13,291 nucleotides of DNA from positions 1 through 13,291 of the forward strand of contig CAZMCX010000013.1 in the NCBI GenBank assembly GCA_964565125.1, read 5' to 3'. Of this stretch, positions 128 through 13,243 are shown piece after piece. This DNA comes from an uncultured archaeon (lineage in GTDB: Archaea > Iainarchaeota > Iainarchaeia > Iainarchaeales > 0-14-0-20-30-16). Each line of letters begins with the position of its first letter. Positions within the stretch are counted from its first letter, which is position 1. A program made the position numbers and the translations under genes. Below the pieces are notes generated by a model. It ran no database searches. It was not told the DNA's origin and worked only from the letters and a program-made list of their open reading frames with translations.

Positions 128-1663
128 ATGCAGACCGATATATCTACATCTCTAAACCTTGATGCTACTGTTGGGGTTGTTATCCAATATGCACAGAAAA
201 AAGATGTAATTATCGATAAGGATGCGGCTATTTTTCTATCAAAGCAGGAAGACTATAAGACAGTAATAGACTCGGCTTTTAAAGATAAAGTTCCGTTTTT
301 AGACTTAAAAAAGGCAGAGGAAATTTTACAGAAATTGAGTTCTAGTGTTGAGATTGTATTTGAAAAAAAAGCAGATATTTCTAATCTGGAAGTTGTTGTT
401 GAAAATCGGGCGAAAAGAAGAGAGGCAAAAGAATATACTTCCAAGATGAAAATAATAAAAGATACAGATATAACAAACAATACAACTGGACAAGGAAAAG
501 TTACTGATTTTGTAGAATTTGTGAGAGATAGATATAATATTTTATCTGGGTTGATAAAAAAACACAACAACTTTTCTCCGGTGCAGTCAAGCGGGATAAA
601 ATATTCTGCAAAGGGGGTAGAAGTAGATGTAATTGGAATGGTATATGAAAAAAGAGACACAAAAACCGGAAATTTAATGGTCATTTTTGATGACAATAAT
701 GGTTTTTTTACCGCAATTTTTGATAAGAATAAACCAATTTATGCGCAGGCAAGAAAACTTTTGAATGATGATGTTGTGGGCATAAAAGGAGTAAAATTAG
801 ATGAAAAATTAATTTATGCTTCTGAGATAATTTTTCCAGATATGCCTGTTGCAACACCAAAAAAAAGTGATATTGATTTGGATATTGTTTTTACTTCTGA
901 TGCTCATATTGGAAGCAATGTTTTTTTTGAAAAAGAATTTAATAATTTTATTGATTGGCTTGACAAAGGGGAAGATAGTAGTAAAATAAAGTATTGTGTT
1001 ATTGCGGGAGACGGGGTTGACGGGATAGGTGTTTATCCAGGCCAAGACGAAGAATTGGCAGTAAAAGATATTTACAAGCAATACGAAATTTTGTCTAATT
1101 ATATTGAAAGAATTCCTGAGCATATAGAAACTTTTATTATTCCTGGAAACCATGATGCCGTGAGGAGGGCAGATCCCCAACCAGCAATACCAAAAGAATA
1201 TTTAAAAAAATTATACGGTCTGAAAAATGTGCATGTTTTAGGATCTCCTTCTATGGTGGAAATTGAGGGCTTAAAAATGTTAATGTATCATGGAAATTCG
1301 ATGAATGAATTACAGGCAAAGTTGGGAATCCATTTTGAGGATCCAATTCCAGTAATGGAAGCCTATCTCTTGAGAAGAGATGTTTGTACAATATATGGTG
1401 GAAAAAATCCAGTATCTCCGGATAAGGGGGGTGTTCTGCAAATAAAAGAAGAACCAGATATTTTTGTTACAGGTCATTTACATTCAAATGGTTATGGGAC
1501 TTATAAAAAAACAATGTTGATAAACCCTGGTGCTTGGCAGGCACAAACATCGTTCCAGAAACAACAAGGCCACATTCCGACTCCGGGAAGAGTGCCAGTA
1601 ATGAATATGAAAACAGGAAAAATATTGGAGAAGGTGTTCATAAATGAAGTTGCCAATATGTGA
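128..1663 (+). CDS. polB: DNA polymerase II (PolD) small subunit DP1, the Mre11-like 3'-5' exonuclease subunit
   Basis: 511-aa ORF with the full calcineurin-like phosphoesterase motif set in DP1 order: VFTSDAHIGS, VIAGDGVDG, IIPGNHD, MYHGNS, VTGHLH. It sits directly upstream of the DP2 gene and overlaps it by 20 nt, the typical archaeal polB-polC operon arrangement. Stop codon is TGA at 1661-1663. Confidence 0.93.
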   Translation: MQTDISTSLNLDATVGVVIQYAQKKDVIIDKDAAIFLSKQEDYKTVIDSAFKDKVPFLDLKKAEEILQKLSSSVEIVFEKKADISNLEVVVENRAKRREAKEYTSKMKIIKDTDITNNTTGQGKVTDFVEFVRDRYNILSGLIKKHNNFSPVQSSGIKYSAKGVEVDVIGMVYEKRDTKTGNLMVIFDDNNGFFTAIFDKNKPIYAQARKLLNDDVVGIKGVKLDEKLIYASEIIFPDMPVATPKKSDIDLDIVFTSDAHIGSNVFFEKEFNNFIDWLDKGEDSSKIKYCVIAGDGVDGIGVYPGQDEELAVKDIYKQYEILSNYIERIPEHIETFIIPGNHDAVRRADPQPAIPKEYLKKLYGLKNVHVLGSPSMVEIEGLKMLMYHGNSMNELQAKLGIHFEDPIPVMEAYLLRRDVCTIYGGKNPVSPDKGGVLQIKEEPDIFVTGHLHSNGYGTYKKTMLINPGAWQAQTSFQKQQGHIPTPGRVPVMNMKTGKILEKVFINEVANM

Positions 1664-4600
1664 TCCAGAAACAAAAAAATATTTTGAAAGAATAGTAATT
1701 GATGTGGATTCCATGTATTCTTTGGCAACAGATATTAGAAAATTGGGTTATGATATTAAAGATGAAGTTGAAATAAAGAGGGCAACAAACCTGGCGGAAA
1801 GAACAGAAGCAATTTTGGAATTGCCCGGTCTTGCAAAAAGATATGAAGAAATAATGGCAGTAAAAAAAGATAGGTTTCCAACAATAATACAAATTTTTGA
1901 CGAAATACTAGATAGTAAATTTGGAAGTTTTCCAACAGATGAAAAAAGATTAGAAGCAGCAGTAAGAACCGCATTAACCTTGTACACAGAGGGGGTTGTT
2001 GTTGCACCTTTGGAGGGAATTCCTGCAATAAAAATAAGTTCTAATTCAGATTCTACAAAATACGTAGACATATTTTATGCCGGCCCAATAAGAGCCGCAG
2101 GTGGAACTGGAACAGTTTTACCAATTGTATTAGCATATTATGGCGGCAAAAAATTAGGTTTGGATAGATATAAAGCAACAGAATCAGAAATAGAACGTTA
2201 TGTTGAAGAATACAGAATTATTGGACGAAAATATGCGCGGCAGATAAAAGTTACAGAAGAAGAGATTAGGCACATTATTAGAGAATGCCCTGTTTGTGTA
2301 AACGGAGAAGCAACAGATCCGGAAGAAGTTGATGTTTATAGAAATCTTGAAAGAGTTCCAACAAATAGATTGAGGGGCGGAGCATTTTTAGTATTGACGG
2401 AGGGTGTAACTCTTAAAGCTGCGAAATTAAAAAAAATTGCAAAAGGATTTGGATTTGATTGGGGCTGGCTTGATAAATTTATTAAAGTAAAAGAAACCGG
2501 AAATACTACAGAAATTTTGCCGAATTACAGATATTTAGAAGGTGCAGCAGCAGGAAGGCCAGTGTTCTCATATCCATCTAGATTTGGCGGTTTTAGATTA
2601 AGATATGGGCGAACAAGAACAACTGGATTAATGGCCAAGGCCTTGCATCCGACTACTATGTATGTTCTTGGAGGTTATGCTGCAGTGGGTACTCAGTTAA
2701 AAGTTGAGAGGCCGGGTAAAGCAGCAGTAATTGGAGCTTGTGATTTAATAGAGCCATCTTATGTTAAACTTAGAGATAAATCTATTGTTAGGGCTGAATC
2801 AAAAGAATGGTATGAAAGTAATCAAATTAATGTTGAAAAAATTTTATTTGTTGGAGATATGTTAATTTCTTATGGTGATTTTAGAAAAACAGCACACCCT
2901 TTGATGCCGCCGGGATATTGTGAAGAATGGTGGGCCTTAGAATTGGAAAAAGAACTTGAAAATAAAAAACTTGGAAAAAAAGAATTTGAAAGTTTTTTGG
3001 ATAATCCTTATGTGGTAAAAGAAGAAGACGCAGTAAAGTTGTCAGATAGTTTTGGGGTTCCATTACACCCAAGATATTTGTATTTCTATACTCAATTAAA
3101 TCAAGAAGATATAATTTATATTAGAAATGCATTACAAAAAGCAGAAAGGAAATATTCTGATGGAATTGAGTTTGATGCAGTATTAGATTATGATGAAAAA
3201 CTTGATTTCTTGTTTACAAAAATTGTAATGCCAATGAAAGTAGAAAATGAAAAAATAATAATAAAACACGGTCTCTCCCTGTTTAAAACTTTTGGTGTTT
3301 TTGACTTGGAAAAAGAAGTTCCAGTTGGTCTTGAACCATTGGATTTATTGTGTTATTTATCTGGTCTTAAAATCAGAGATAAAGCCGGGTCCTTTATCGG
3401 CGCAAGAATGGGTAGGCCTGAAGCAGCAACAGAAAGAAAAATGACTGGGAGTCCACAAGTTTTGTTTCCTATTGGAAAGATGGGTGGAAACACAAGAAGT
3501 ATTAATAAGGCGGTTGATTTTAAATCACAGGAAAGTAAGGGTTTATTTGATTCCAAAGCAGCATCAACTGTAGAAATTGCGTTTTATAAATGTCCTAGAT
3601 GTAAAAAAGAAATTGTGTATCCTTATTGTTGGGAATGTAAAGAAAGAACTGTAAGGCAATATTATTGTAGTTCTTGTAATAAAAGTTATGATGAAAGAAA
3701 AGAAAAATGTACCTGTGGTGGAAAAATATACCATTCTAAAAGATCAAGTTTGTCTTTTGCAAACATATTCAGAGATGCAGTAAAAAGGCTTGGTGTTGAG
3801 GCCCCCGCAATGATAAAAGGTGTTGAGGGGCTAGTGTCAATAGATAAAGTTGCAGAACCCCTAGAAAAAGGAATTTTGAGAGCAAAAAACGGAGTTTATG
3901 TTTTTAAAGATGGGGTTTGTAGAACTGATTTATTAGACTTTAATTTGAGTCATTTTAAACCGGTAGAGTTGAAAATGACAGTTGAAAAAGCAAGAGCTTT
4001 GGGATATGAGCTAGATATTTATGGAAACGAACTTAAAGATGAGAATCAAATGTTAAGGTTATTTCCACAAGATGTTATTTTGAATACTACAGTTGGTGAC
4101 TATTTAGTAAAAGTTGCAACATTTGTAGATGACTTATTAGAAAAGTTTTACAAAAAGCCAAAATTTTACAATGCAAAAGTAAGAGATGATTTAATTGGGC
4201 ATTATATTCTTGCATTAGCGCCACACATTGTTGCGGGAATTGTTGGAAGAGTAATAGGATATAGTGAATCGAGAGTAATGTTTTCACATCCTTATTTTAA
4301 TACTGCAAAAAGAAGAAACTGTTTAACTTTCGATACACCCATAGTTTTAAGTAATAATAAAAATATTTGCTTAATGGAAATCGGTGCCCTTGATGATGGT
4401 TCACATAAAACCGAAATCCCTCTTGAAAATACGTATACTTATTCTGTTGATTCGCGGGGCAAGTTACATAAAAGAAAAGTAATTGCATTATATAAACAGA
4501 AAAATAAAGAAAAAATATTAAAATTGAAAACGAGATTTGGGAGAGAAGTAAAAGTAACTCCTAAACAAAAAATTCTTTATGGAGAAAATGGACTTGTAAA

Positions 4601-6500
4601 ATATAAATTTGCAAAAGACTTGAAAATTGGTGATAATTTATTATCTTTGGCTAATGCAAAATACACAAAAAATAATGAATTAAATATCTTGGAATATTAT
4701 TTACAATCACCCCTAAAGCAAAAAATAAGAGTCCACAACATAAAAAAATTATTAAAACCAAAATTAAAAAAAGATGGCTATGTAAATATCGGAAATAAGT
4801 TAGGAATAAATTGGAAGAAGCTACATACTGCAATTGATTTTGATGCAGTCCCTTTGGATCTTTATGAAAAATTACGTAAACAGTATAAAATTGCGGATGA
4901 TGGTCTGGAGCTATCTTATAATAAACAAAAAAGCAGGATTCCTTGTATAATTGGATTAACTAAAGAACTTGGATGGATTGTTGGATATTATCTGGCGGAT
5001 GGACATGCCCGAACTAGTTATGGAAAATCTAAAGATATAAAGAAATATGTTTATCAAGTAAATTTTGTGTCTGCAGAAAAAGAAATAACTAATAAATTAA
5101 TGAAAATAACTAAAAAACTGTTTAATAGAAATTTAACAAAGAGTAAGCAAAAAAGTGTGGATGATTTATATCTGAGTGGAAGAGTATATTATGATTTATT
5201 TGTGAATATTTTACAAACAGGCAAATGCGCAAGAAATAAAAGGGTCCCCCAAATAATAACTAACTCTAATTCAGAGTGTATTAAAGGTTGTATTGGCGGT
5301 TATGTTGTGGGCGATGGGCATATAGAAAAAACAAGTATTAAGGCAATAAGCGTAAATAAAAATCTAATAAATGAATTTGCATATTTGTGCGCTACTCAAA
5401 ATTTGTTTGCTCACGTTTTTGAAGAAAAAGAAAGAACAATAAAAACCGGCTTAGTAAAAGAATATTACCAAAAAAGAAATAAGTCTATAACTGTAAAATC
5501 ATATGGGTTTAAGTTATATTCCAAAGATTTTAAGGAAATGGTTCAGTACTTGTTTGGATCTAAATTTAAAAAAGCAATACAAAATCTGAAAAGTATTGAA
5601 ATAAAGAAAAAAAGAGTAAGTAAGTTAGGAAATTTTATTATTGATAAATTAGTAAGTATTAAGGAAGTTCCTTATAATGGAAAATATGTATATGACCTAA
5701 TTGTAGAAAAAGAAAAGACCTTTATTGGAGGTTATGGTAATTTGGGGATTTATGATTGTGATGGGGATCAGGATTCTGCAATGCTTTTATTAGATGTATT
5801 TTTAAATTTTTCAAAAGATTATTTACCATCAACAAGAGGCGGAAAACAAGACACCCCGCTTGTTGCTACAATTGTTTTAGATCCACAAGAAATAGATGAT
5901 GAAGCGTATGAAATGGAAACTACATCTAAATATACTTTAGAATTTTACGAATCTGCATTAAAAAAAGCAGAACCCGTATTGAAGTTTTTGAATATTGTTG
6001 GAAATTTTATTGGAACCGATAAACAATTTACAGAATTAAAATTCACACACGATACTATCCAATATGATGCGGGCCCAAAGCAATCTAGTTATACTTTAAT
6101 AAAAGAGATGAAAGATAAAATTTCAAATCAGCTTGACTTGCAATATAAAATAACTGCGGTAGACCACATGGCTGCATTAGAATTAGTTTTATCTACACAT
6201 TTTTTGCCAGATATTATTGGAAATGCAAGAAAATATGCTAGACAAGGCTTTAGGTGTACAAAATGTAACAAGAAATTTAGGCGTATGCCTTTGTTGGGGT
6301 CTTGCTCATGTGGTGGAAACATAAATCTGACAATAGCACAAGGCTCAGTAAGAAAGTATTTGGGGCTTACAGACGGTATTTCAAAGAAATACAAACTTAC
6401 TGATTATTTAGACCAAAGAATAAAATTGATTTACAAAGAAGTTGATTCTTTGTTTAATAATGAGAAAATAAAACAAAAGTCTTTAGGAGACTTTATGTGA
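1644..6500 (+). CDS. polC: DNA polymerase II (PolD) large catalytic subunit DP2, containing an intein
   Basis: 1618-aa ORF with DP2 signature blocks: YAGPIRAAGGTG, GRPVFSYPSRFGGFRLRYGRTR, GARMGRPE, LEKGILRAKNGVYVFKDG, FVDDLLEKFY, LAPHIVAGIVGRVIG, HPYFNTAKRRN...CDGDQDSAMLLLD. It has Cys-cluster zinc modules (CPRCKK...CWEC...CSSC...CTCGG and the C-terminal CTKCNKKFRR...CSCGG). AAGGTG at 1631-1636 lies 7 nt before the ATG at 1644. The extein is 1139 aa after intein removal, a normal DP2 size. Confidence 0.95.
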   Translation: MKLPICDPETKKYFERIVIDVDSMYSLATDIRKLGYDIKDEVEIKRATNLAERTEAILELPGLAKRYEEIMAVKKDRFPTIIQIFDEILDSKFGSFPTDEKRLEAAVRTALTLYTEGVVVAPLEGIPAIKISSNSDSTKYVDIFYAGPIRAAGGTGTVLPIVLAYYGGKKLGLDRYKATESEIERYVEEYRIIGRKYARQIKVTEEEIRHIIRECPVCVNGEATDPEEVDVYRNLERVPTNRLRGGAFLVLTEGVTLKAAKLKKIAKGFGFDWGWLDKFIKVKETGNTTEILPNYRYLEGAAAGRPVFSYPSRFGGFRLRYGRTRTTGLMAKALHPTTMYVLGGYAAVGTQLKVERPGKAAVIGACDLIEPSYVKLRDKSIVRAESKEWYESNQINVEKILFVGDMLISYGDFRKTAHPLMPPGYCEEWWALELEKELENKKLGKKEFESFLDNPYVVKEEDAVKLSDSFGVPLHPRYLYFYTQLNQEDIIYIRNALQKAERKYSDGIEFDAVLDYDEKLDFLFTKIVMPMKVENEKIIIKHGLSLFKTFGVFDLEKEVPVGLEPLDLLCYLSGLKIRDKAGSFIGARMGRPEAATERKMTGSPQVLFPIGKMGGNTRSINKAVDFKSQESKGLFDSKAASTVEIAFYKCPRCKKEIVYPYCWECKERTVRQYYCSSCNKSYDERKEKCTCGGKIYHSKRSSLSFANIFRDAVKRLGVEAPAMIKGVEGLVSIDKVAEPLEKGILRAKNGVYVFKDGVCRTDLLDFNLSHFKPVELKMTVEKARALGYELDIYGNELKDENQMLRLFPQDVILNTTVGDYLVKVATFVDDLLEKFYKKPKFYNAKVRDDLIGHYILALAPHIVAGIVGRVIGYSESRVMFSHPYFNTAKRRNCLTFDTPIVLSNNKNICLMEIGALDDGSHKTEIPLENTYTYSVDSRGKLHKRKVIALYKQKNKEKILKLKTRFGREVKVTPKQKILYGENGLVKYKFAKDLKIGDNLLSLANAKYTKNNELNILEYYLQSPLKQKIRVHNIKKLLKPKLKKDGYVNIGNKLGINWKKLHTAIDFDAVPLDLYEKLRKQYKIADDGLELSYNKQKSRIPCIIGLTKELGWIVGYYLADGHARTSYGKSKDIKKYVYQVNFVSAEKEITNKLMKITKKLFNRNLTKSKQKSVDDLYLSGRVYYDLFVNILQTGKCARNKRVPQIITNSNSECIKGCIGGYVVGDGHIEKTSIKAISVNKNLINEFAYLCATQNLFAHVFEEKERTIKTGLVKEYYQKRNKSITVKSYGFKLYSKDFKEMVQYLFGSKFKKAIQNLKSIEIKKKRVSKLGNFIIDKLVSIKEVPYNGKYVYDLIVEKEKTFIGGYGNLGIYDCDGDQDSAMLLLDVFLNFSKDYLPSTRGGKQDTPLVATIVLDPQEIDDEAYEMETTSKYTLEFYESALKKAEPVLKFLNIVGNFIGTDKQFTELKFTHDTIQYDAGPKQSSYTLIKEMKDKISNQLDLQYKITAVDHMAALELVLSTHFLPDIIGNARKYARQGFRCTKCNKKFRRMPLLGSCSCGGNINLTIAQGSVRKYLGLTDGISKKYKLTDYLDQRIKLIYKEVDSLFNNEKIKQKSLGDFM
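4320..5756 (+). mobile_element. Intein with a LAGLIDADG homing-endonuclease domain, inserted in the DP2 catalytic motif (aa 893-1371 of the ORF, 479 aa)
   Basis: Junctions read KRRN|CLTFDTPIVL...GNLGIYD|CDGDQD, and excising 4320-5756 restores the contiguous RRN-CDGD motif. Block A is CLTFDTPIVL. Block B-like is GREVKVTPKQKIL. The two LAGLIDADG motifs are LGWIVGYYLADGHA (4968-5009) and IKGCIGGYVVGDGHIE (5280-5327). Block F/G-like is YVYDLIVEKEKTFIGGYGNLGIYD, followed by the +1 Cys. Confidence 0.88.
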
Positions 6501-6511
6501 AATCTACGAAA

Positions 6512-6521
6512 TTTATAAATA
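6512..6521 (+). promoter_or_regulatory. Putative TATA box for the FecR-like/cyclase gene pair
   Basis: tttataaata lies in the 52-bp spacer after the polC stop, about 30-40 nt upstream of the ATG at 6553. GGTGG (6544-6548) serves as a Shine-Dalgarno-like element. This suggests the signalling pair has its own promoter. Confidence 0.3.
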
Positions 6522-6552
6522 TTCTTGTAGATATTATATAGCCGGTGGTAAC

Positions 6553-7497
6553 ATGAAGAATGCGTTTCTAATAGTTCTGATTAGTTTTATTGTTTTGATA
6601 ATTATTGTTTTTGGACTTGTTTATTTTATGGGCTTAAAAGACGATCCAACAACGACCCCCAAAGATACTAACAAAGTAAATGAAGTATTTGTAGAAATTT
6701 TGCAAGGTGACGTTTACTATAAAAATTTAGAAACAAAAAATGAATACCTTTTACTTGAAAAAAACCAATATCTCGATGAGAATACCTGGGTTAAAACAGA
6801 TTTAAATAGTAAAGCACAGCTTAATTTTGGAGAAGGGATTTATGCAGTTTTATCAGAAAATACTGAAGTTTTGATAAAAGAATTTTTTGAAAAAGACGGT
6901 CTAAAAACAATTGAATTGGAGCAAACATCTGGAAGTATTTGGCATAGAATAATGAAAATATTTGGAAACGCAGATTATTCTGTTGAAGTCGGAGAGGTTA
7001 TTGCAAGCGTGAGGGGCACAGGGTTCTTTACAGAAATTGATAATAATAATTCAACTGTATCCGTACATGATGGAAATGTAGAGGTATTGGCCGGAGAAAA
7101 AAGATATTATGTGACCTCAGGTTATAAAGTACAGATTAATAGAAATTTAAAGAAAGCATCAACGGTTGTTGATAATGTGGATGTAACAAAAATAATTAAT
7201 AATAGCAAGAAAAATGACGACCCCTTATACAATAAAGATGGAGTTAAAGTAACTAATCTTGGATCTGGCGGATTTATTGATGATAGTTTGGCTATTGATG
7301 ATTCTATTGTTGAAAAGAAAAAAGAAAAACTAAAAAAAGAATATGCTGTCCAAATCGGTATTGCAAAAAGTGCATCTTCTGATGTTACGGATAACATAAT
7401 TGATGAATATTTGGATATTGCAGTAAAAGAGGGGGAAGAAAAAGCAAAGCAGACGATAGAAGAGCAAGGAATTGATATTGGCAAGTATTTTAATTAG
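6553..7497 (+). CDS. Membrane-anchored FecR-domain protein (putative extracytoplasmic sensor or partner)
   Basis: 314 aa. It has an N-terminal hydrophobic anchor, AFLIVLISFIVLIIIVFGLVYFMGL. A FecR-like beta-rich domain pattern follows: AQLNFGEGIYAVLSENTEVLI...SIWHRI...YSVEVGEVIASVRGTGFFTEID...STVSVHDGNVEVLAG. The C-terminal region is charged and coiled-coil-like (KKKEKLKKEY...EGEEKAKQTIEEQ). GGTGG lies 4 nt upstream of the ATG. The stop TAG (7495-7497) abuts the next gene. Confidence 0.7.
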   Translation: MKNAFLIVLISFIVLIIIVFGLVYFMGLKDDPTTTPKDTNKVNEVFVEILQGDVYYKNLETKNEYLLLEKNQYLDENTWVKTDLNSKAQLNFGEGIYAVLSENTEVLIKEFFEKDGLKTIELEQTSGSIWHRIMKIFGNADYSVEVGEVIASVRGTGFFTEIDNNNSTVSVHDGNVEVLAGEKRYYVTSGYKVQINRNLKKASTVVDNVDVTKIINNSKKNDDPLYNKDGVKVTNLGSGGFIDDSLAIDDSIVEKKKEKLKKEYAVQIGIAKSASSDVTDNIIDEYLDIAVKEGEEKAKQTIEEQGIDIGKYFN

Positions 7498-7517
7498 TGG
7501 TAAACGAGGTGTTATTT

Positions 7518-9140
7518 GTGAAAGAAAAAAGAATAGTATTTATCACGGGATTTTTAGTTGCCCTAATTATTGTGTGTGCCTTTGTTGGAGTAAGATTATT
7601 TTCTTATGTTGATAATTTAGTTACTGATCAGTTTTATTATGTTTCTGGAAATAACGATAACATAGTGCTTGTGCTTATTGGTGATGAAACAATTGCAAAG
7701 TTGGGGGCTTGGCCAATAGATAGAGAAAATTATTCTAAATTTTTAGATAAAATAAATGCAAAAATAATTGGTATTGACATTTCTTTTTTTGACCAGACGA
7801 CAAAAGATGATTTAATAAAAAATTCTATGAAAGACAAAAATGTTGTACTGGCGTCTGAGCTTAGTAATGACCTAAAAACAGAAACAGCCCCAATATTTGG
7901 AATAAATTACGGATACGTGAATGTTCCAGTAGAGAAAGATGGTGTTAGCAGAAAAATAATTGAAACAAAGTATACAAATTTTGCAAAAAAGGTATGTGAA
8001 CTTTACACAAACGATTTATGTAAAGAAACTGGAACATATTTAAATTTTTCTTATATACAAAACAACTTTAAAACTTACAAATTTGAAGATATTGTATTAT
8101 CTAATAAAGAATACGATTTTGGAAAAAAGATTGTATTGCTTGGTTCAAATGTGAAAAATTTGCATGACTATGTTAATACCCCATTACAAAAAGAAATGCA
8201 GGGGGTAGTTTATCAAGCAAATTATATCGAAAACTATTTGCAAAAGAACTTTTTGAATAATTATTTCTATCTTGTGTTTTTGTTTTGTGTATTTTTAGTT
8301 ATAATTACATTTTTAGTTGGATATTTTATTGGTTCTAAGTGGTCTATTTTATTAATTGTCTGCTTGTTCTTATTATGTGTTGTTTTATCGCTTGTATTGT
8401 TTAATTATCTAATAATTTTTAGTTTATTTTATCCTCTTATTTCATTATTAGTTTCTGGAATAGTGTTTTATTTAACAGAATACCAATTTAGGGGCATAGA
8501 AAAAAGAGGGATTACAAATTTATTTAGCAAATATGTTTCAAAAAATGTTGTTAATCATATGCTGAAAGATCCAAAAAAATATACAAATTATAATTCTGAA
8601 AGAAAAAGAGTAACTGTATTATTTGGAGATATTAGGGGGTTCACAAAAATGTCCTCTCAAATGGATTCAGAAGATGTAATGCATACTCTAAACGCGTATC
8701 TTAATGAAATGACGGAAATTATTTTCAAACATGGTGGAACTGTAGACAAATATGTTGGCGATGAAATAATGGCAGTATTTAATTCTCCAACAGAAGTTAA
8801 AGACCATGAAAGAAAAGCATTTGAATGTGCTAAAGAAATGTTGGCGCATGTTGCAAAAGTAAATAAGCAAACCAGAAAGAAGCTAAACTATGGTATTGGA
8901 ATAAATTCGGGTTATGTTGTTGCAGGAAGCTTTGGTTCTAAGCATCGTTTGGAATATGGGGTTTTAGGGGATACGGTAAACTTGGCATCCCGTTTTTGTA
9001 GTGTAGCACAAGGTAATGAAATTGTTATTGGCAAAGGAACATATGATGGCCTAAGAATAGTTGATAGAATTGGGCTCGAAGAAAGAGAATATGATCTAAA
9101 AGGAAAAGGATATATCACTGCACATGTTTGGAAAAAATAA
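7518..9140 (+). CDS. CHASE2 sensor domain / transmembrane / class III adenylate (or guanylate) cyclase
   Basis: N-terminal TM segment (ITGFLVALIIVCAFVGV). CHASE2 hallmark IVLVLIGDETIAKLGAWPIDRENYSKFLDKI...IIGIDISFFD. About three TM helices (YFYLVFLFCVFLVIITFLVGYF...ILLIVCLFLLCVVLSLVLF...LISLLVSGIVFYL). The class III cyclase core follows: RVTVLFGDIRGFT, DKYVGDEIMAVF, GINSGYVVAGSFGS, GVLGDTVNLASRF. I prefer the GTG start at 7518 because GAGGTG (7506-7511) lies 6 nt upstream. The ORF-track start, GTG at 7497 overlapping the upstream TAG, is the alternative. Confidence 0.88.
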   Translation: MKEKRIVFITGFLVALIIVCAFVGVRLFSYVDNLVTDQFYYVSGNNDNIVLVLIGDETIAKLGAWPIDRENYSKFLDKINAKIIGIDISFFDQTTKDDLIKNSMKDKNVVLASELSNDLKTETAPIFGINYGYVNVPVEKDGVSRKIIETKYTNFAKKVCELYTNDLCKETGTYLNFSYIQNNFKTYKFEDIVLSNKEYDFGKKIVLLGSNVKNLHDYVNTPLQKEMQGVVYQANYIENYLQKNFLNNYFYLVFLFCVFLVIITFLVGYFIGSKWSILLIVCLFLLCVVLSLVLFNYLIIFSLFYPLISLLVSGIVFYLTEYQFRGIEKRGITNLFSKYVSKNVVNHMLKDPKKYTNYNSERKRVTVLFGDIRGFTKMSSQMDSEDVMHTLNAYLNEMTEIIFKHGGTVDKYVGDEIMAVFNSPTEVKDHERKAFECAKEMLAHVAKVNKQTRKKLNYGIGINSGYVVAGSFGSKHRLEYGVLGDTVNLASRFCSVAQGNEIVIGKGTYDGLRIVDRIGLEEREYDLKGKGYITAHVWKK

Positions 9141-9224: not shown

Positions 9225-9917
9225 ATGCTTACTTGGGTGTGGTTTGTCTTGTTATCTGCGAAAATTGAAGAACTTAAAAAAGACAAAATATCAAAACTAA
9301 TTTCTAGCAGAATAAAAGAGTTTAAAACTAAAAGATCAAGCGAGGAGGTATTTTCTGAACTCTGTTTTTGTATTCTAACTGCGAATTTTAATGCGGAAAG
9401 AAGTATACAGATCCAAGAGTAGATAAGGGAAAAAGGATTTCTGAATTTCCCTGAGCAAAAGCTTGCATCCAAATTAAAAGAATTGGGCCATAGATTCCCA
9501 AACACAAGAGCAAAGTATATTGTGGAAGCAAGGGGGCAAGTAGGGAAAATATACTCGCTAATAGGGGAAAAGGACAGCATTAGTCAAACTAAAGAGAAGC
9601 TTAAACAAAAAGAATCCTCTACTGCGCCAGAAATAAGAAATTGGCTTGTAAAAAATATAAACGGTTTAGGCTTAAAAGAATCCAGCCATTTTCTGCGGAA
9701 TATTGGATTTGAAGATTTTGCAATAATAGATTTTCATATTGTGGATTTGTTGGTGCGGGAAGGTTTAATAGTGAAACAGAAACCTGGTGCATTAGCCCCC
9801 AAAATATATAGAGAAATAGAACAGGCCTTAGTCAAGCTAGGTAAAAAAACAGACCTAAACTTGGCAGAATTAGATTTATACTTGTGGTATTTAGAAACAG
9901 GGAAAGTATTGAAGTAA
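9225..9917 (+). pseudogene. ogg: Archaeal-type (Ogg2 family) N-glycosylase/DNA lyase for 8-oxoguanine, interrupted by a single in-frame TAG at 9420-9422
   Basis: The two track ORFs (9225-9422 and 9483-9917) are in the same frame. Read through the TAG, they form one protein collinear with my memory of Methanocaldococcus jannaschii Ogg: KIEELKK...RIKEFK...ELCFCILTANFNAE...(TAG)...KLKELGHRF...RAKYIV...GLGLKESSHFLRNIGFEDFAIIDFHI...LAELDLYLWYLETGKVLK. The HhH-GPD catalytic Lys (LKESSHFLRN) and Asp (AIIDFH) are intact. The true start is uncertain: ATG 9225, GTG 9237, or TTG 9249, which has GGTG 9 nt upstream and best matches the homologue N-terminus. Confidence 0.8.
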
Positions 9918-9972
9918 TTTGCGAATTTGTGTATTATAAGTGAAAGATTTCTAATTTTTATAGTCAGTAGTG

Positions 9973-10034
9973 GTACTTATTGATGCTCTAACTGTCAATA
10001 ACTGTACTTAAGTTGAAGCTCTAACTGTCAATAA
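9973..10034 (+). repeat. Tandem imperfect direct repeat (29 + 31 bp) immediately upstream of the ATPase promoter; candidate transcription-factor operator
   Basis: Unit 1 (9973-10001) is gtacttattgatgctctaactgtcaataa. Unit 2 (10004-10034) is gtacttaagttgaagctctaactgtcaataa. The core gctctaactgtcaataa is identical at 9985-10001 and 10018-10034, 33 bp apart or about three helical turns. Confidence 0.75.
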
Positions 10035-10042
10035 ATGCAACT

Positions 10043-10052
10043 AATATATAAA
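10043..10052 (+). promoter_or_regulatory. Putative TATA box of the ATPase gene (leaderless configuration)
   Basis: aatatataaa is centred about 27 nt upstream of the ATG at 10075. No SD-like sequence intervenes, which is the classic geometry for an archaeal leaderless mRNA. Confidence 0.45.
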
Positions 10053-10074
10053 TGTTTTGTTTAATAGTATCTTT

Positions 10075-11412
10075 ATGGCTCCAATTAACCCGGTATTAGA
10101 TAGTGAAACTAGAATTTTATTGAATCACAATCCTTGGTGGGAATCTGAATTTTCTTTTGATAATGACACGGATCTAATAAAACTAAAAGATAAAAAATTT
10201 ATCAGGCAAGTAGACTGGTTTGAAAACTTAAAAAAAGGGATATATATTTTAAGAGGGCCTAGACAAGTAGGAAAAACAACAGCCATAAAACAAAAAATCC
10301 TGCAATTGACAAAAAAATATTCTCCCGGAGAAATATTATATCTAAATGTAACAAATTACTCTAATAAAGAATTAGATATTTTGCTGACAAAATTTTTATC
10401 TTTAAATAAACAAATAAAATTTATATTTATAGATGAGATATCTTATATTGAAAATTGGAGTAAACTGATAAAAAGTATTTCTGATTTTGGCTTTTTTGAG
10501 GGAAAAACAGTAATTCTGACTGGATCTAATACTTTGGATATGAGGTATGAATATGAAACTATGCCTGGAAGAACCGGCGAAGGAAAAAGAATTATTGCAA
10601 AACCGGTAAGTTATAAAGAATATTTAGAATTGGTTTGTGGAATAAAAATAGACTTGCCTAAAAAAATGTATAATCAAATTGACTTTTTAAATGCTAAATT
10701 TGAAGAATATTTATTGACGGGGGGGCTGCCAGCAGTAATTAATGATTATCTCTCTACGGGGAAAATAAATGATAGTTTTTATGATATTTATATAAAGTGG
10801 ATTATAGGGGATATAGAAAAATATCGATTTAAGTCTAATACTGCAAAAGCGATATTAAAAAAAGTAATTGCTAGTTTGGGGTCAAAGGTATCTTGGGAAT
10901 CTTTAAATGAATATGCGGGGGTATCTCATGTTACTGTGGCAGAATACATTGATGTTTTGGAAAGATCTTTTTTAGTGAATTATTATTATAATGCTACAAG
11001 TGGATCTGTAGATTCTAAAAAAAGAAAGAAAATTTATTTTTTAGACCCTTTCTTTTATTTTTGCGTTTATAAGTGGATTTTTGGAGAAATAAATATGTAT
11101 TCTAAGGCATATAGTATGTTAAAGGATACAAAATTGTTGGGTCTGATTAAAGAAAACTGTGTAAGTTCTTTTTTATGGCAACAAATTGTTGGCTTATCAG
11201 ACACCATAGATTACAAAACAAAAATATTTTTCTTTAGCCCATCCAGGGGAAAAGAAGTGGATTTTGTATTTGATAATATATGCCTTGAAGTTAAGTCTGA
11301 AGATTCAAATAGGCAATCCGGAATTGTTTTGACAAAAGACAAATTTGAAAAAAATAAAATCCCTCTTGCAATATTTTTATTATATCCCCCTACAGAATTT
11401 AAAAAAAGATAG
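10075..11412 (+). CDS. AAA-type ATPase of the AAA_14 + DUF4143 architecture (the 'archaeal ATPase' family), with a C-terminal nuclease-like motif
   Basis: Walker A is LRGPRQVGKTT and Walker B is IKFIFIDEISY. A long C-terminal domain ends in GKEVDFVFDNICLEVKSED, a D...ExK pattern. I prefer the ATG at 10075 (MAPINPV...) because of the TATA spacing. The ORF-track start is TTG at 10057, 6 codons upstream. Stop is TAG at 11410-11412. Confidence 0.8.
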   Translation: MAPINPVLDSETRILLNHNPWWESEFSFDNDTDLIKLKDKKFIRQVDWFENLKKGIYILRGPRQVGKTTAIKQKILQLTKKYSPGEILYLNVTNYSNKELDILLTKFLSLNKQIKFIFIDEISYIENWSKLIKSISDFGFFEGKTVILTGSNTLDMRYEYETMPGRTGEGKRIIAKPVSYKEYLELVCGIKIDLPKKMYNQIDFLNAKFEEYLLTGGLPAVINDYLSTGKINDSFYDIYIKWIIGDIEKYRFKSNTAKAILKKVIASLGSKVSWESLNEYAGVSHVTVAEYIDVLERSFLVNYYYNATSGSVDSKKRKKIYFLDPFFYFCVYKWIFGEINMYSKAYSMLKDTKLLGLIKENCVSSFLWQQIVGLSDTIDYKTKIFFFSPSRGKEVDFVFDNICLEVKSEDSNRQSGIVLTKDKFEKNKIPLAIFLLYPPTEFKKR

Positions 11413-11531
11413 GCAGTTAATATTTGTTTTTGAAAATTGTGTTGAATAATAGACTCTAAAAATTAGCCCCCAAAGAGGGTTAGGGAAAAAATATTCCCTA
11501 TCTATTTGTTTAAACTTATTTCTTCTCAAGA

Positions 11532-11558
11532 AAGCTTTTTGCTTAACGCAAAAAGTTT
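11532..11558. other. Stem-loop aagctttttgc-ttaac-gcaaaaagttt (11-bp stem including one G-U pair)
   Basis: The inverted repeat was read directly. On the minus strand it carries a T5 run, so it could contribute to termination of the small ORF transcript. Function unknown. Confidence 0.35.
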
Positions 11559-11567
11559 CAGGAGCTG

Positions 11568-11595
11568 AATAAGTTTCCACAGGTGGAAACTTATT
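11568..11595 (-). terminator. Perfect 13-bp inverted repeat (aataagtttccac ag gtggaaacttatt) overlapping the stop codon of the small ORF; candidate terminator or protein-binding palindrome
   Basis: The arms at 11568-11580 and 11583-11595 are exact reverse complements. The right arm includes the TAA stop (complement of 11591-11593). Archaeal termination normally relies on oligo-T, so a terminator role is uncertain. Confidence 0.35.
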
Positions 11596-11755
11596 TCTTC
11601 TTCAACATTGGTAGACCTGTTCTTTTGTTTTCTACTACCTTGTATCCGCTTGGCAATTCTATTGAGCCCTTTGGATCCTTTGAAAAGTAGAACAATCTTC
11701 CTTTTTGATGTAGGTGGTATGTTAAACCCTTACTATTCTTATAACTAAATCCCAT
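11591..11755 (-). CDS. Small basic hypothetical protein, 54 aa (MGFSYKNSKGLTYHLHQKGRLFYFSKDPKGSIELPSGYKVVENKRTGLPMLKKK)
   Basis: I translated this by hand from the minus strand. It is absent from the ORF track because it is shorter than 60 aa. The ATG (complement of 11753-11755) is preceded by GGAGG (complement of 11764-11768) with an 8-nt spacer, the best ribosome-binding site in the window. It fills an otherwise empty 430-bp gap. The sequence is non-repetitive and looks globular. It resembles small conserved hypothetical proteins I recall (Y.LH...lfyFSK...lP.GY.vvEn.rTGLP.lKK), but that is unverified. Confidence 0.6.
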   Translation of the reverse strand: MGFSYKNSKGLTYHLHQKGRLFYFSKDPKGSIELPSGYKVVENKRTGLPMLKKK

Positions 11756-11845
11756 TCAGAATTCCTCCATAACTGTTTACGTATAAATTACTTCGTATTC
11801 CTTAATAAACTTATCGCTTTTTTTATTCATAGTTGCGAAGGAAAA

Positions 11846-13243
11846 GTGGTATTTTTGAAAATATATAACTCCCTAACGAAAAAAATAATGGGATTTAGAG
11901 CTAAAAAAGACATAAACATGTATGTCTGCGGCCCAACGGTTTACAATTATGCACATATTGGCAACATGCGAACCTATATTTTGGGGGATTTAATTACTAG
12001 ATTCTTGGAATATAAGGGTTATAATGTAAAATATGTAAGAAATTATACTGATGTTGACGACAAAACAATAAAGGGATCAATAGAAAGTGGAAAGAGCTTA
12101 GAAGAATTTACTAATTTTTATATTAAGGAATTTGAAAAAGACTGCGCTTTGCTAAATTTGAACGAGCCGGATGTAAAACCAAGGCCAACAAAGCTAATAA
12201 AAGAAATTGTGGAATTTATCGAAGATCTAATAAAAGATGGATATGCTTATAAAGCAAAAGATGGTTCAACTTATTTTGATATTTCTAAATTTGTAAACTA
12301 CGGAAAATTAAATAATATTAAACAAAAAGAGTTGAAAAAAGGCGGGAGTGGCCGTGTAAATCTTGATGAATATGAAAAAGATAATGCCTCCGACTTTGTA
12401 TTATGGAAGGCTTGGAAAGAAGAAGACGGAAAAGTATTTTGGAATACTAGTTTGGGAAAAGGAAGACCTGGCTGGCATATAGAATGTTCTGTAATGTGTT
12501 ACAAATATTTGGGAAAAACAGTTGATATCCATGTGGGTGGAGAAGATTTGAAGTTCCCACACCACGAAAACGAAATTGCACAAAGTGAAGCCCATAACAA
12601 GGTGAGATTTACGAACTATTGGGTGCACGGCGGGATGCTAACTGTTGATGGAAAGAAAATGTCAAAGAGATATGGAAATATTTACACTATTAAAGAAGTT
12701 TTGGAAAAGAGCTATAACCCAATTGCTTTGAAATTGTATTATTTTATGTCAAATTATAGGTCTTCAATGGATTTTTCATTTGATGAACTAAAAGAAACTG
12801 AGTTGAAGCTAAATGGATTAAATAAAACAATAAAAAGACTTGTAGGTTATCACGGCCCCAAAGGCGGTGTGGAAGAATATAAAAAGAAAATAAAGATTTA
12901 TTTGAAAGATATTGAGAAAGTAATGGACAATGATTTTAATACAAGGCTTGCAATGACCTATTTATTAGATATGTTTAGTTATATAAATTTAAATATAACC
13001 GAGGGAAAGTTATCTACGGGGAATGTTAAATTCACTTTACAAACTTTAAAGAAGTTGGATACGGTGTTTGGGATTTTCCAATTTCCTGAAATGCCAACAA
13101 AATTAATATTAAAAAAAGTAAAGAAAAGACAATGGTATAGGGCAAAGAAAAATTATGTAATGGCGGATAAAATGAGAGATCAATTAAAGGACTATCTGGT
13201 TGAAGACCATAAGAACGGTGCGTTCTCTGTGTACAAGATTTGA
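11846..13243 (+). CDS. cysS: Cysteine--tRNA ligase (cysteinyl-tRNA synthetase), class I
   Basis: 465 aa, collinear with E. coli CysS. It begins LKIYNSLT...[20 protein letters not shown] (HIGH motif, HIGN). Zinc and cysteine-binding elements are [10 protein letters not shown] and [23 protein letters not shown]. The KMSKS-type motif is KMSKR, and DDFNT is present in the anticodon-binding region. The start is GTG 11846 per the track, or TTG 11855, which gives MKIYNSLT. Stop is TGA at 13241-13243. Confidence 0.95.

Follow-up and report, generated by a model that had tools for sequence, protein, structure and literature searches.

FecR-domain proteins encoded next to CHASE2 sensors have been described in bacteria. 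In Campylobacterota, the gene of a CHASE2 class III cyclase lies next to a FecR-domain gene, one pathway has been proposed for both, and the cluster spreads horizontally (PMC9239204). In magnetotactic bacteria, a conserved gene for a CHASE2-adenylate cyclase comes after mtxA (PMC4439547; PDB 4Z29), while the Burkholderia BiofilmReg operon encodes a response regulator, a LysM/FecR protein and a CHASE2 histidine kinase (PMC5192318). Here, we analysed a 13,291-nucleotide stretch of DNA from an uncultured archaeon (the window) and found at 6553-9140 a FecR-domain gene followed by the gene of a CHASE2 class III cyclase. This pair is an archaeal member of a known, mechanistically unsolved sensor module.

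The archaeal locus resembles each of the described systems in part. Like the Campylobacterota cluster, it places a CHASE2 class III cyclase beside a FecR-domain protein; that cluster, however, also codes for a cyclic AMP (cAMP) phosphodiesterase and for a TPR protein, and the FecR protein there has been described as an outer-membrane protein. The archaeal module consists of the two genes only, its host lacks an outer membrane, being an archaeon, and a transmembrane (TM) helix at the N-terminus anchors the FecR protein. The N-terminal domain of MtxA matches the profile of CHASE2-linked FecR proteins (E 0.0019), but MtxA has extra Ig-like and TPR-related domains and comes from Proteobacteria, and the window has no magnetotaxis context. 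BiofilmReg likewise encodes an extracytoplasmic FecR-domain protein immediately before a CHASE2 sensor; its output, however, is a histidine kinase with a response regulator instead of a cyclase, and its FecR protein carries a LysM domain that is missing in the archaeal protein. In S. meliloti, CyaD1, CyaD2 and CyaK share the CHASE2 plus class III cyclase architecture, and the passages on them in PMC5498481 describe no adjacent FecR partner. This paper reports that CyaD1 produces cAMP constitutively once its CHASE2 domain is deleted, which supports an inhibitory or gating role of CHASE2, and it counts the FecR-domain gene smc02177 among the targets of the cAMP regulator Clr.

The gene pair and its setting

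All three domain assignments of a preliminary description of this DNA scored above the Pfam thresholds: FecR (PF04773, residues 80-177, nt 6790-7083) with 32.7 bits (cut-off 24), CHASE2 (PF05226) with 110.3 bits (cut-off 26.3) and Guanylate_cyc (PF00211) with 106.6 bits (cut-off 21.9). The features of the pair and of the region upstream, with Shine-Dalgarno abbreviated as SD, are placed as follows.

6511-6548, + strand: promoter-like block upstream of the FecR gene, with a conserved 31-nt pattern at 6511-6541
6512-6521, + strand: TATA-like TTTATAAATA, inside the block conserved in relatives
6529-6541, + strand: conserved AGATATTATATAG, occurring once in the window
6544-6548, + strand: SD-like GGTGG before the FecR start codon, ATG 6553
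6553-7497, + strand: gene of the FecR-domain protein, 314 aa (Pfam PF04773)
7015-7020, + strand: codons of Gly155-Thr156, counterpart of the FecR/FoxR self-cleavage (N-O acyl shift) site (hmmalign)
7506-7511 and 7518-7520, + strand: SD-like GAGGTG and GTG start of the cyclase gene (homologue start alignment)
7518-9140, + strand: gene of the CHASE2 plus class III cyclase protein, 540 aa (Pfam PF05226, PF00211)
residues about 5-27 of the cyclase, + strand: TM helix 1 (hydropathy, AlphaFold2)
about 7566-8282, + strand: CHASE2 ectodomain
about 8265-8480, + strand: three TM helices after CHASE2 (hydropathy, AlphaFold2)
about 8595-9128, + strand: cytoplasmic cyclase domain

The 31-nt pattern ATTTATAAATATTCTTNNAGATATTATATAG (6511-6541) has an exact match in the window and in the related contigs L086/L087 and L084. 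L084 has an HhH-GPD gene in place of polC ahead of the FecR gene, yet the upstream block is unchanged. The TATA-like element that had been noticed after polC is thus part of a conserved block; it lies about 30-40 nt before the FecR ATG and is followed by GGTGG, and together these elements fit a putative archaeal promoter with a short leader. The FecR gene ends with TAG at 7495-7497, and the cyclase most likely starts at the SD-led GTG 20 nt downstream, at 7518-7520, with a six-base gap behind GAGGTG. In the alignment, this GTG coincides with the ATG at which the two closest cyclase orthologues, those of L086 and L084, begin. An earlier in-frame GTG at 7497, taken as the start in the open reading frame (ORF) listing, was rejected, as the homologue N-termini and the SD-like sequence favour 7518. 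No terminator-like structure was found between the two genes. The 20-nt spacer, the SD-like sequence, the absence of a terminator and the conserved upstream block together support the operon-like arrangement suggested before, and mark the pair as a predicted two-gene operon with its own conserved upstream block.

The spacer varies among relatives: in L086 (10946-11023) it measures 78 nt against 20 nt in the window, owing to a 58-nt insertion, with the SD-like sequence and the start region conserved. In L087 (Logan SRR22315508) the cyclase orthologue at 11024-12649 is called as two genes of 150 aa and 367 aa. The NCBI contig L086 otherwise matches L087 and carries a single 541-aa cyclase gene; the split in L087 is probably an assembly or strain-level disruption.

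The host is a small-genome DPANN (Iainarchaeota-like) archaeon. The flanking genes are archaeal by Pfam: the family D DNA polymerase (PolD) subunits DP1 and DP2 (polC) lie upstream, and ogg, an AAA_14 ATPase gene and cysS downstream. Since the domain families of the pair are overwhelmingly bacterial, we considered that the segment between polC and ogg might be chimeric through misassembly or might have been inserted very recently from bacteria. This is hardly credible, and we rejected it on three grounds. Assemblies of three independent Sequence Read Archive runs match the window from 5228 to 8218 at 99.7-100% identity without gaps, a span that crosses both the polC/FecR and the FecR/cyclase junctions. 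L086, L087 and L084 are collinear with the window across both junctions, and a contig of an NCBI Iainarchaeota metagenome-assembled genome (MAG; GCA_028710695.1) has the order DP1, DP2, FecR, cyclase, ogg, cysS at 83-87% nucleotide identity. Finally, neither GC content, GC content at third codon positions nor the tetranucleotide profile changes abruptly at 6500 or 9140, and the segment cannot be told from its flanks by them (r 0.964, within the 0.945-0.977 of other segments), in line with the earlier remark that the pair has the same AT-rich codon usage as its neighbours. Vertical inheritance of the module within this archaeal lineage is part of the overall explanation that we favour with some reserve.

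Spread and ancestry of the pair

Is the pairing of a FecR gene with a CHASE2-cyclase gene common beyond this contig? In the nearest sequence cluster of the cyclase, the FecR gene lies directly upstream on the same strand in 13/13 informative contexts (the window, L084, L085, the P0006 locus, L086, L088/L089, L090, L091, L092, L093, L094, L095 and L006). Four contexts are archaeal by their marker genes: that of the window and L086 (PolD), L085 (Topo VI, Rpb4, L21e, RIO1), the P0006 locus (GatD, TrmB) and L094 (fused primase, S4e, L32e, SUI1). L092 (JGI 3300000571 contig; protein P0034) is bacterial, with L28, L33, S21, L7/L12 and NusG-SecE. The module and its FecR partner are retained in archaeal contexts down to 45-50% protein identity.

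Two side observations concern the neighbourhoods of these relatives. Sigma-54 activators are typically bacterial regulators, and in L088 (P0042, labelled Nanoarchaeota) one such gene (1284-2522; Sigma54_activat plus HTH_8) precedes the FecR gene of the pair at a distance of 4.4 kb, so that it is uncertain to which domain of life the contig belongs. In L085 (5621-7585) and the P0006 locus, two more distant archaeal relatives at 45-50% identity, genes for an HTH_3/HVO_2718-like protein and for a site-2 protease (Peptidase_M50) come after the pair, which may reflect functional linkage or only lineage synteny.

In a wider set, the best 80 loci among one-genome-per-species GTDB representatives, which are almost all bacterial, a FecR gene was present within 6 kb in 36 cases, and in 20 of these it shared the strand of the cyclase gene and lay no more than 360 nt upstream of it. 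Together with the published cases, this bears out the statement in the preliminary description that FecR genes are frequent CHASE2 neighbours in bacteria. The FecR partners were found with an iterated hidden Markov model, and Pfam confirmed 42/43 of them. A scan of genome contigs returned, among the matches listed, mostly bacteria and two Woesearchaeota, and is no census of archaea; Pfam analysis of the genes neighbouring the two Woesearchaeota loci gave no domain-of-life markers. Same-strand adjacency spans Archaea, the candidate phyla radiation (CPR), Acidobacteriota, Chloroflexi, Firmicutes and cyanobacteria, with wholly different flanking genes.

Automatic annotations of such proteins already exist, as 'FecR domain-containing protein [Candidatus ainarchaeum sp.]' and as 'CHASE2 domain-containing protein' or 'adenylate/guanylate cyclase' in Woesearchaeota, Nanoarchaeota and Thermoplasmatota MAGs, and look-alike pairs are frequent in MAGs labelled Woesearchaeota and Nanoarchaeota. 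The rarity and novelty claimed earlier were therefore overstated: that such pairs are common and annotated in related archaea, which the preliminary description had itself named as speaking against its claim, is largely what we found. As the pair is widespread in bacteria and automatically annotated in many related archaeal genomes, it extends the known module and is not a new system. The general statement that archaea mostly lack class III cyclases does still stand in the literature, a 2021 paper counting very few class III enzymes among the predicted archaeal adenylate cyclases (PMC8646023). Our full-text search of the literature turned up no description of class III cyclases from DPANN; the archaeal occurrence thus seems undescribed in print, even though automated annotation already labels these proteins.

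The pair had been proposed to be horizontally acquired. A bacterial origin is plausible, since the family is overwhelmingly bacterial, and the transfer would be an old one; a recent import does not agree with the conservation of the module down to 45-50% identity, and acquisition appears, from these sequence comparisons, to predate the split of lineages that are only that similar. That the family is common to other DPANN archaea and CPR bacteria likewise indicates that any inter-domain transfer is ancient. In a neighbour-joining tree of 196 proteins, the window cyclase groups with P0002, P0003, P0005 and P0006 in 200/200 bootstraps. All archaeal-labelled sequences fall into one 48-member cluster beside CPR bacteria in 33/200 bootstraps, and owing to this weak support we assign no source of the transfer. 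The cluster also holds P0034, whose contig carries the bacteria-type proteins L28, L33, S21 and L7/L12, so that the 'DPANN' cluster is mixed with CPR-like bacteria, and some MAG labels or some transfers within it need checking.

The two proteins and their link

The cyclase contains the motifs FGDIRGFT, DKYVGDEIMAVF and GDTVNLASR, as quoted in the preliminary description, and the three or so TM helices it placed after CHASE2 are supported by hydropathy and by the AlphaFold2 model. That model, a monomer with a predicted local distance difference test score (pLDDT) of 90.6, has helices at residues 2-24, 250-271, 273-296 and 304-336; these four TM helices place CHASE2 outside and the catalytic domain in the cytoplasm. 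The metal-binding residues D371 and D415, the substrate residue K411, the transition-state residues N488 and R492 and the phosphate-binding K530 are invariant in 34 relatives. The best sequence matches in the PDB were Synechocystis Cya2 (2W01), its Lys variant 6FHT, P. aeruginosa CyaB (3R5G) and Spirulina CyaC (1WC0), with E values of 1e-28 to 1e-34 for Cya2, CyaB and CyaC, which have the same metal, transition-state and phosphate-binding residues. The cyclase model matched the class IIIb catalytic domains of these three in fold with TM-scores of 0.78-0.86 (target-length normalised) at 31-36% identity; among the 50 matches listed, the full-model search gave cyclase domains only and no solved CHASE2 structure.

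Class IIIb adenylate cyclases are specified by a Lys-Thr substrate pair, which CyaB also has. The window cyclase has the Lys (Lys411) and a Gly (Gly480) in place of the Thr. This Gly is shared by its four closest relatives, P0002, P0003, P0005 and P0006, while nearly all more distant relatives in the DPANN cluster have Thr at this position, and P0024 has Ser. The pair is Lys-Thr in CyaC, Glu-Gly in Cya2 and Lys-Gly in the clade of the window, and the sensor modules of these enzymes differ as well. In the alignment, DKYVGD and YGVLGD of the window stand opposite DEFMGD and YGVVGA of Cya2, and opposite DKFMGD of 6FHT, a construct that has Lys where Synechocystis Cya2 has Glu and that was deposited as an adenylate/guanylate cyclase. 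As Lys411 and Gly480 form the same pair as in 6FHT, we predict that the window enzyme is an adenylate cyclase, with some doubt about its strictness.

Alternatively, cGMP or a mixture could be the messenger, if the enzyme acts as a guanylate cyclase or accepts purine nucleotides promiscuously. Gly480, present throughout the clade of the window, matches Cya2 (YGVVGA) and is neither the Thr of class IIIb nor the Asp of class IIIa, and Cya2 (36% identity) is among the best structural matches. However, the first and dominant specificity position, Lys411, is invariant in all 34 relatives, Cya2 has Glu there, the Lys-bearing 6FHT was deposited as an adenylate/guanylate cyclase, and other DPANN relatives carry the canonical Lys-Thr pair, all of which makes this alternative quite unlikely.

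The FecR-domain protein is membrane-anchored and outward-facing. Only three residues (MKN) precede its single N-terminal TM helix (residues about 4-27, hydropathy), which is followed by an all-beta FecR domain and a charged helical C-terminus (residues about 250-304 in a low-confidence AlphaFold2 model, pLDDT 49). This model was built from a 3-sequence alignment and not used for fold search. Two orthologues are 82% and 76% identical to it. A sequence search against the PDB gave no match, and a profile search against it gave weak matches to MtxA, an antifreeze/adhesin domain and a putative anti-sigma factor. Using hmmalign, G155-T156 aligned onto G181-T182 of E. coli FecR, a self-cleavage site described in PMC8144685 and PMC11637429. 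Among 43 CHASE2-linked FecR proteins, G155 is invariant and T156 at least 90% conserved, and by analogy the window protein may also cleave itself at Gly155-Thr156.

The FecR domain and the aligned Gly-Thr site are shared with the FecR/FoxR anti-sigma factors; unlike these, the window protein has no cytoplasmic anti-sigma domain and neither an extracytoplasmic function (ECF) sigma factor nor a TonB-dependent transducer as partner. Could it nevertheless be an anti-sigma-like regulator under regulated intramembrane proteolysis that signals to a transcription factor and not to the cyclase? The conserved self-cleavage site would fit, as would the HTH_3/HVO_2718 and Peptidase_M50 genes behind the pair in L085 and the P0006 locus. 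But with three residues before the TM helix the protein lacks a cytoplasmic domain that could bind a sigma factor or a transcription factor, for which reason we do not regard the protein as an anti-sigma factor, and the HTH and M50 genes are missing from the window, L086 and L084. Our Pfam scan covered the eight window ORFs of at least 60 aa (other, overlapping ORFs lay outside it) and found no sigma factor gene among them; no TonB-dependent transducer was seen in the window or in the related archaeal loci inspected. To our knowledge, archaea have neither ECF sigma factors nor TonB-dependent transducers. We consider such a regulator very improbable.

One link between the FecR protein and the cyclase is their adjacency, which outlasts a complete turnover of flanking genes across two domains of life. 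In addition, distances between FecR domains correlate with those between the CHASE2 plus TM regions (r 0.785) more than with those between the cyclase domains (0.53; 46 pairs), and the partial correlations with FecR are 0.68 for CHASE2 plus TM and 0.04 for the cyclase domain. As both extracytoplasmic parts evolve fast, this correlated divergence is only suggestive. The FecR protein might instead have a role that does not involve the cyclase, such as that of a surface adhesin or of a cell-envelope protein, and be adjacent through shared regulation or synteny only. Its NCBIfam similarity to the Leptospira FecR-domain adhesins Lsa33 and Lsa19, weak and far below the cut-offs, points this way, and so do the CHASE2-cyclase loci of the GTDB set in which no FecR gene is near. 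Against it stand the same-strand adjacency kept in Archaea and bacterial phyla despite different flanks, and a FecR divergence that tracks CHASE2 specifically; we judge independence to be unlikely.

The explanation that we hold to be the best, and somewhat probable as a whole, is that of a FecR-partnered, CHASE2-gated sensor operon that makes cAMP. All class III cyclases work as homodimers, and the window enzyme would do so too, converting ATP to cAMP with Lys411 and, as second selector, Gly480. CHASE2 would keep the enzyme in a regulated state, and the FecR partner, perhaps after self-cleavage at Gly155-Thr156 as in FecR and FoxR, would bind CHASE2 outside the membrane and relay an envelope or extracellular cue. 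The cAMP would then act on effectors encoded elsewhere in the genome.

Several points weigh against this explanation. In 44/80 of the mostly bacterial CHASE2-cyclase loci, no FecR gene lies within 6 kb, so an adjacent partner is dispensable in this cyclase family. The contact between FecR and CHASE2 is a proposal drawn from adjacency and correlated divergence, and two fast-evolving extracytoplasmic domains could correlate without touching; the FecR model, moreover, is too poor (pLDDT 49) for any structural claim. The Gly at the second substrate position is unusual and, in the alignment, shared with the guanylate cyclase Cya2, so that specificity could be relaxed. We know of no ligand for any CHASE2 domain. 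Neither a cAMP effector nor a phosphodiesterase was found in the window or in the roughly 20 kb seen in L086; in agreement with the preliminary description, the Pfam scan found no cyclic nucleotide-binding domain in the ORFs that it covered.

One relative indicates the kinds of effector and eraser to look for. In L091 (JBHPHL010000037.1, labelled Thermoplasmatota; 345-4240), the pair adjoins a 526-aa cyclic nucleotide-binding GNAT acetyltransferase and a 257-aa MBL/PDEase_II/Apyc1-like protein, and to judge from these domains the genes together would be a full cassette of cAMP writer, reader and eraser. In metagenomes, close relatives of the acetyltransferase number in the hundreds, and many relatives occur in Thermoplasmatales-like and Promethearchaeota MAGs; no DPANN-named one was among the 120 matches listed.

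Neighbouring genes and biological meaning

All substantial genes of the window lie on the + strand, and no tRNA or Rfam family was found in it. Besides the pair, it contains the following genes.

128-1663, + strand: PolD small subunit DP1 (Pfam scan of window ORFs)
1644-6500, + strand: PolD large subunit DP2 (polC), intein-bearing (Pfam scan)
9225-9917, + strand: ogg (8-oxoguanine glycosylase), an interrupted ORF
10057-11412, + strand: AAA_14/DUF4143 ATPase gene
11846-13243, + strand: cysS (cysteinyl-tRNA synthetase)

The DP2 intein (4320-5756; 479 aa with a LAGLIDADG domain) lies just before the CDGDQD motif and is missing in the orthologues of L086, L087 and L084. Most inteins end in His-Asn; this one begins with Cys, apparently ends in Tyr-Asp and is followed by Cys, where the intein-less allele has Thr. 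The ogg ORF contains an in-frame TAG at 9420-9422, where both orthologues have Gln; if the codon had been CAG, one change from C to T would account for it. Candidate explanations are a nonsense mutation, a pseudogene and a sequence error; other genes of the window use TAG as an ordinary stop codon. Between ogg and cysS, the AAA_14/DUF4143 ATPase gene is part of an insertion (about 9933-11589) without counterpart in L086, which has a short spacer there, while L084 carries a radical-SAM gene on the opposite strand at this site. The ogg-cysS interval is thus a variable insertion site.

What could such a module sense in these organisms? We speculate, and hold this to be a long shot, that in DPANN and CPR it serves ultra-small, surface-attached cells as an envelope or host-contact sensor, the latter an idea of the preliminary description. 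In it, a self-cleaving FecR protein would respond to attachment or to a molecule on the host surface by turning on cAMP synthesis via CHASE2. If this were true, class III cAMP signalling would be a general, undescribed regulatory layer of DPANN that is exchanged between DPANN and CPR.

In summary, a complete receptor-type class III cyclase and its conserved extracytoplasmic partner are stably inherited in at least one DPANN lineage. Signalling by cAMP in archaea is poorly understood, and the locus is valuable mainly as evidence for a common occurrence of class III cAMP signalling in DPANN archaea. The archaeal form is the simplest FecR-CHASE2 module, with two genes, no outer membrane and no PAS or HAMP domains, and it could lend itself well to studies of what is sensed by CHASE2 and its FecR partner.

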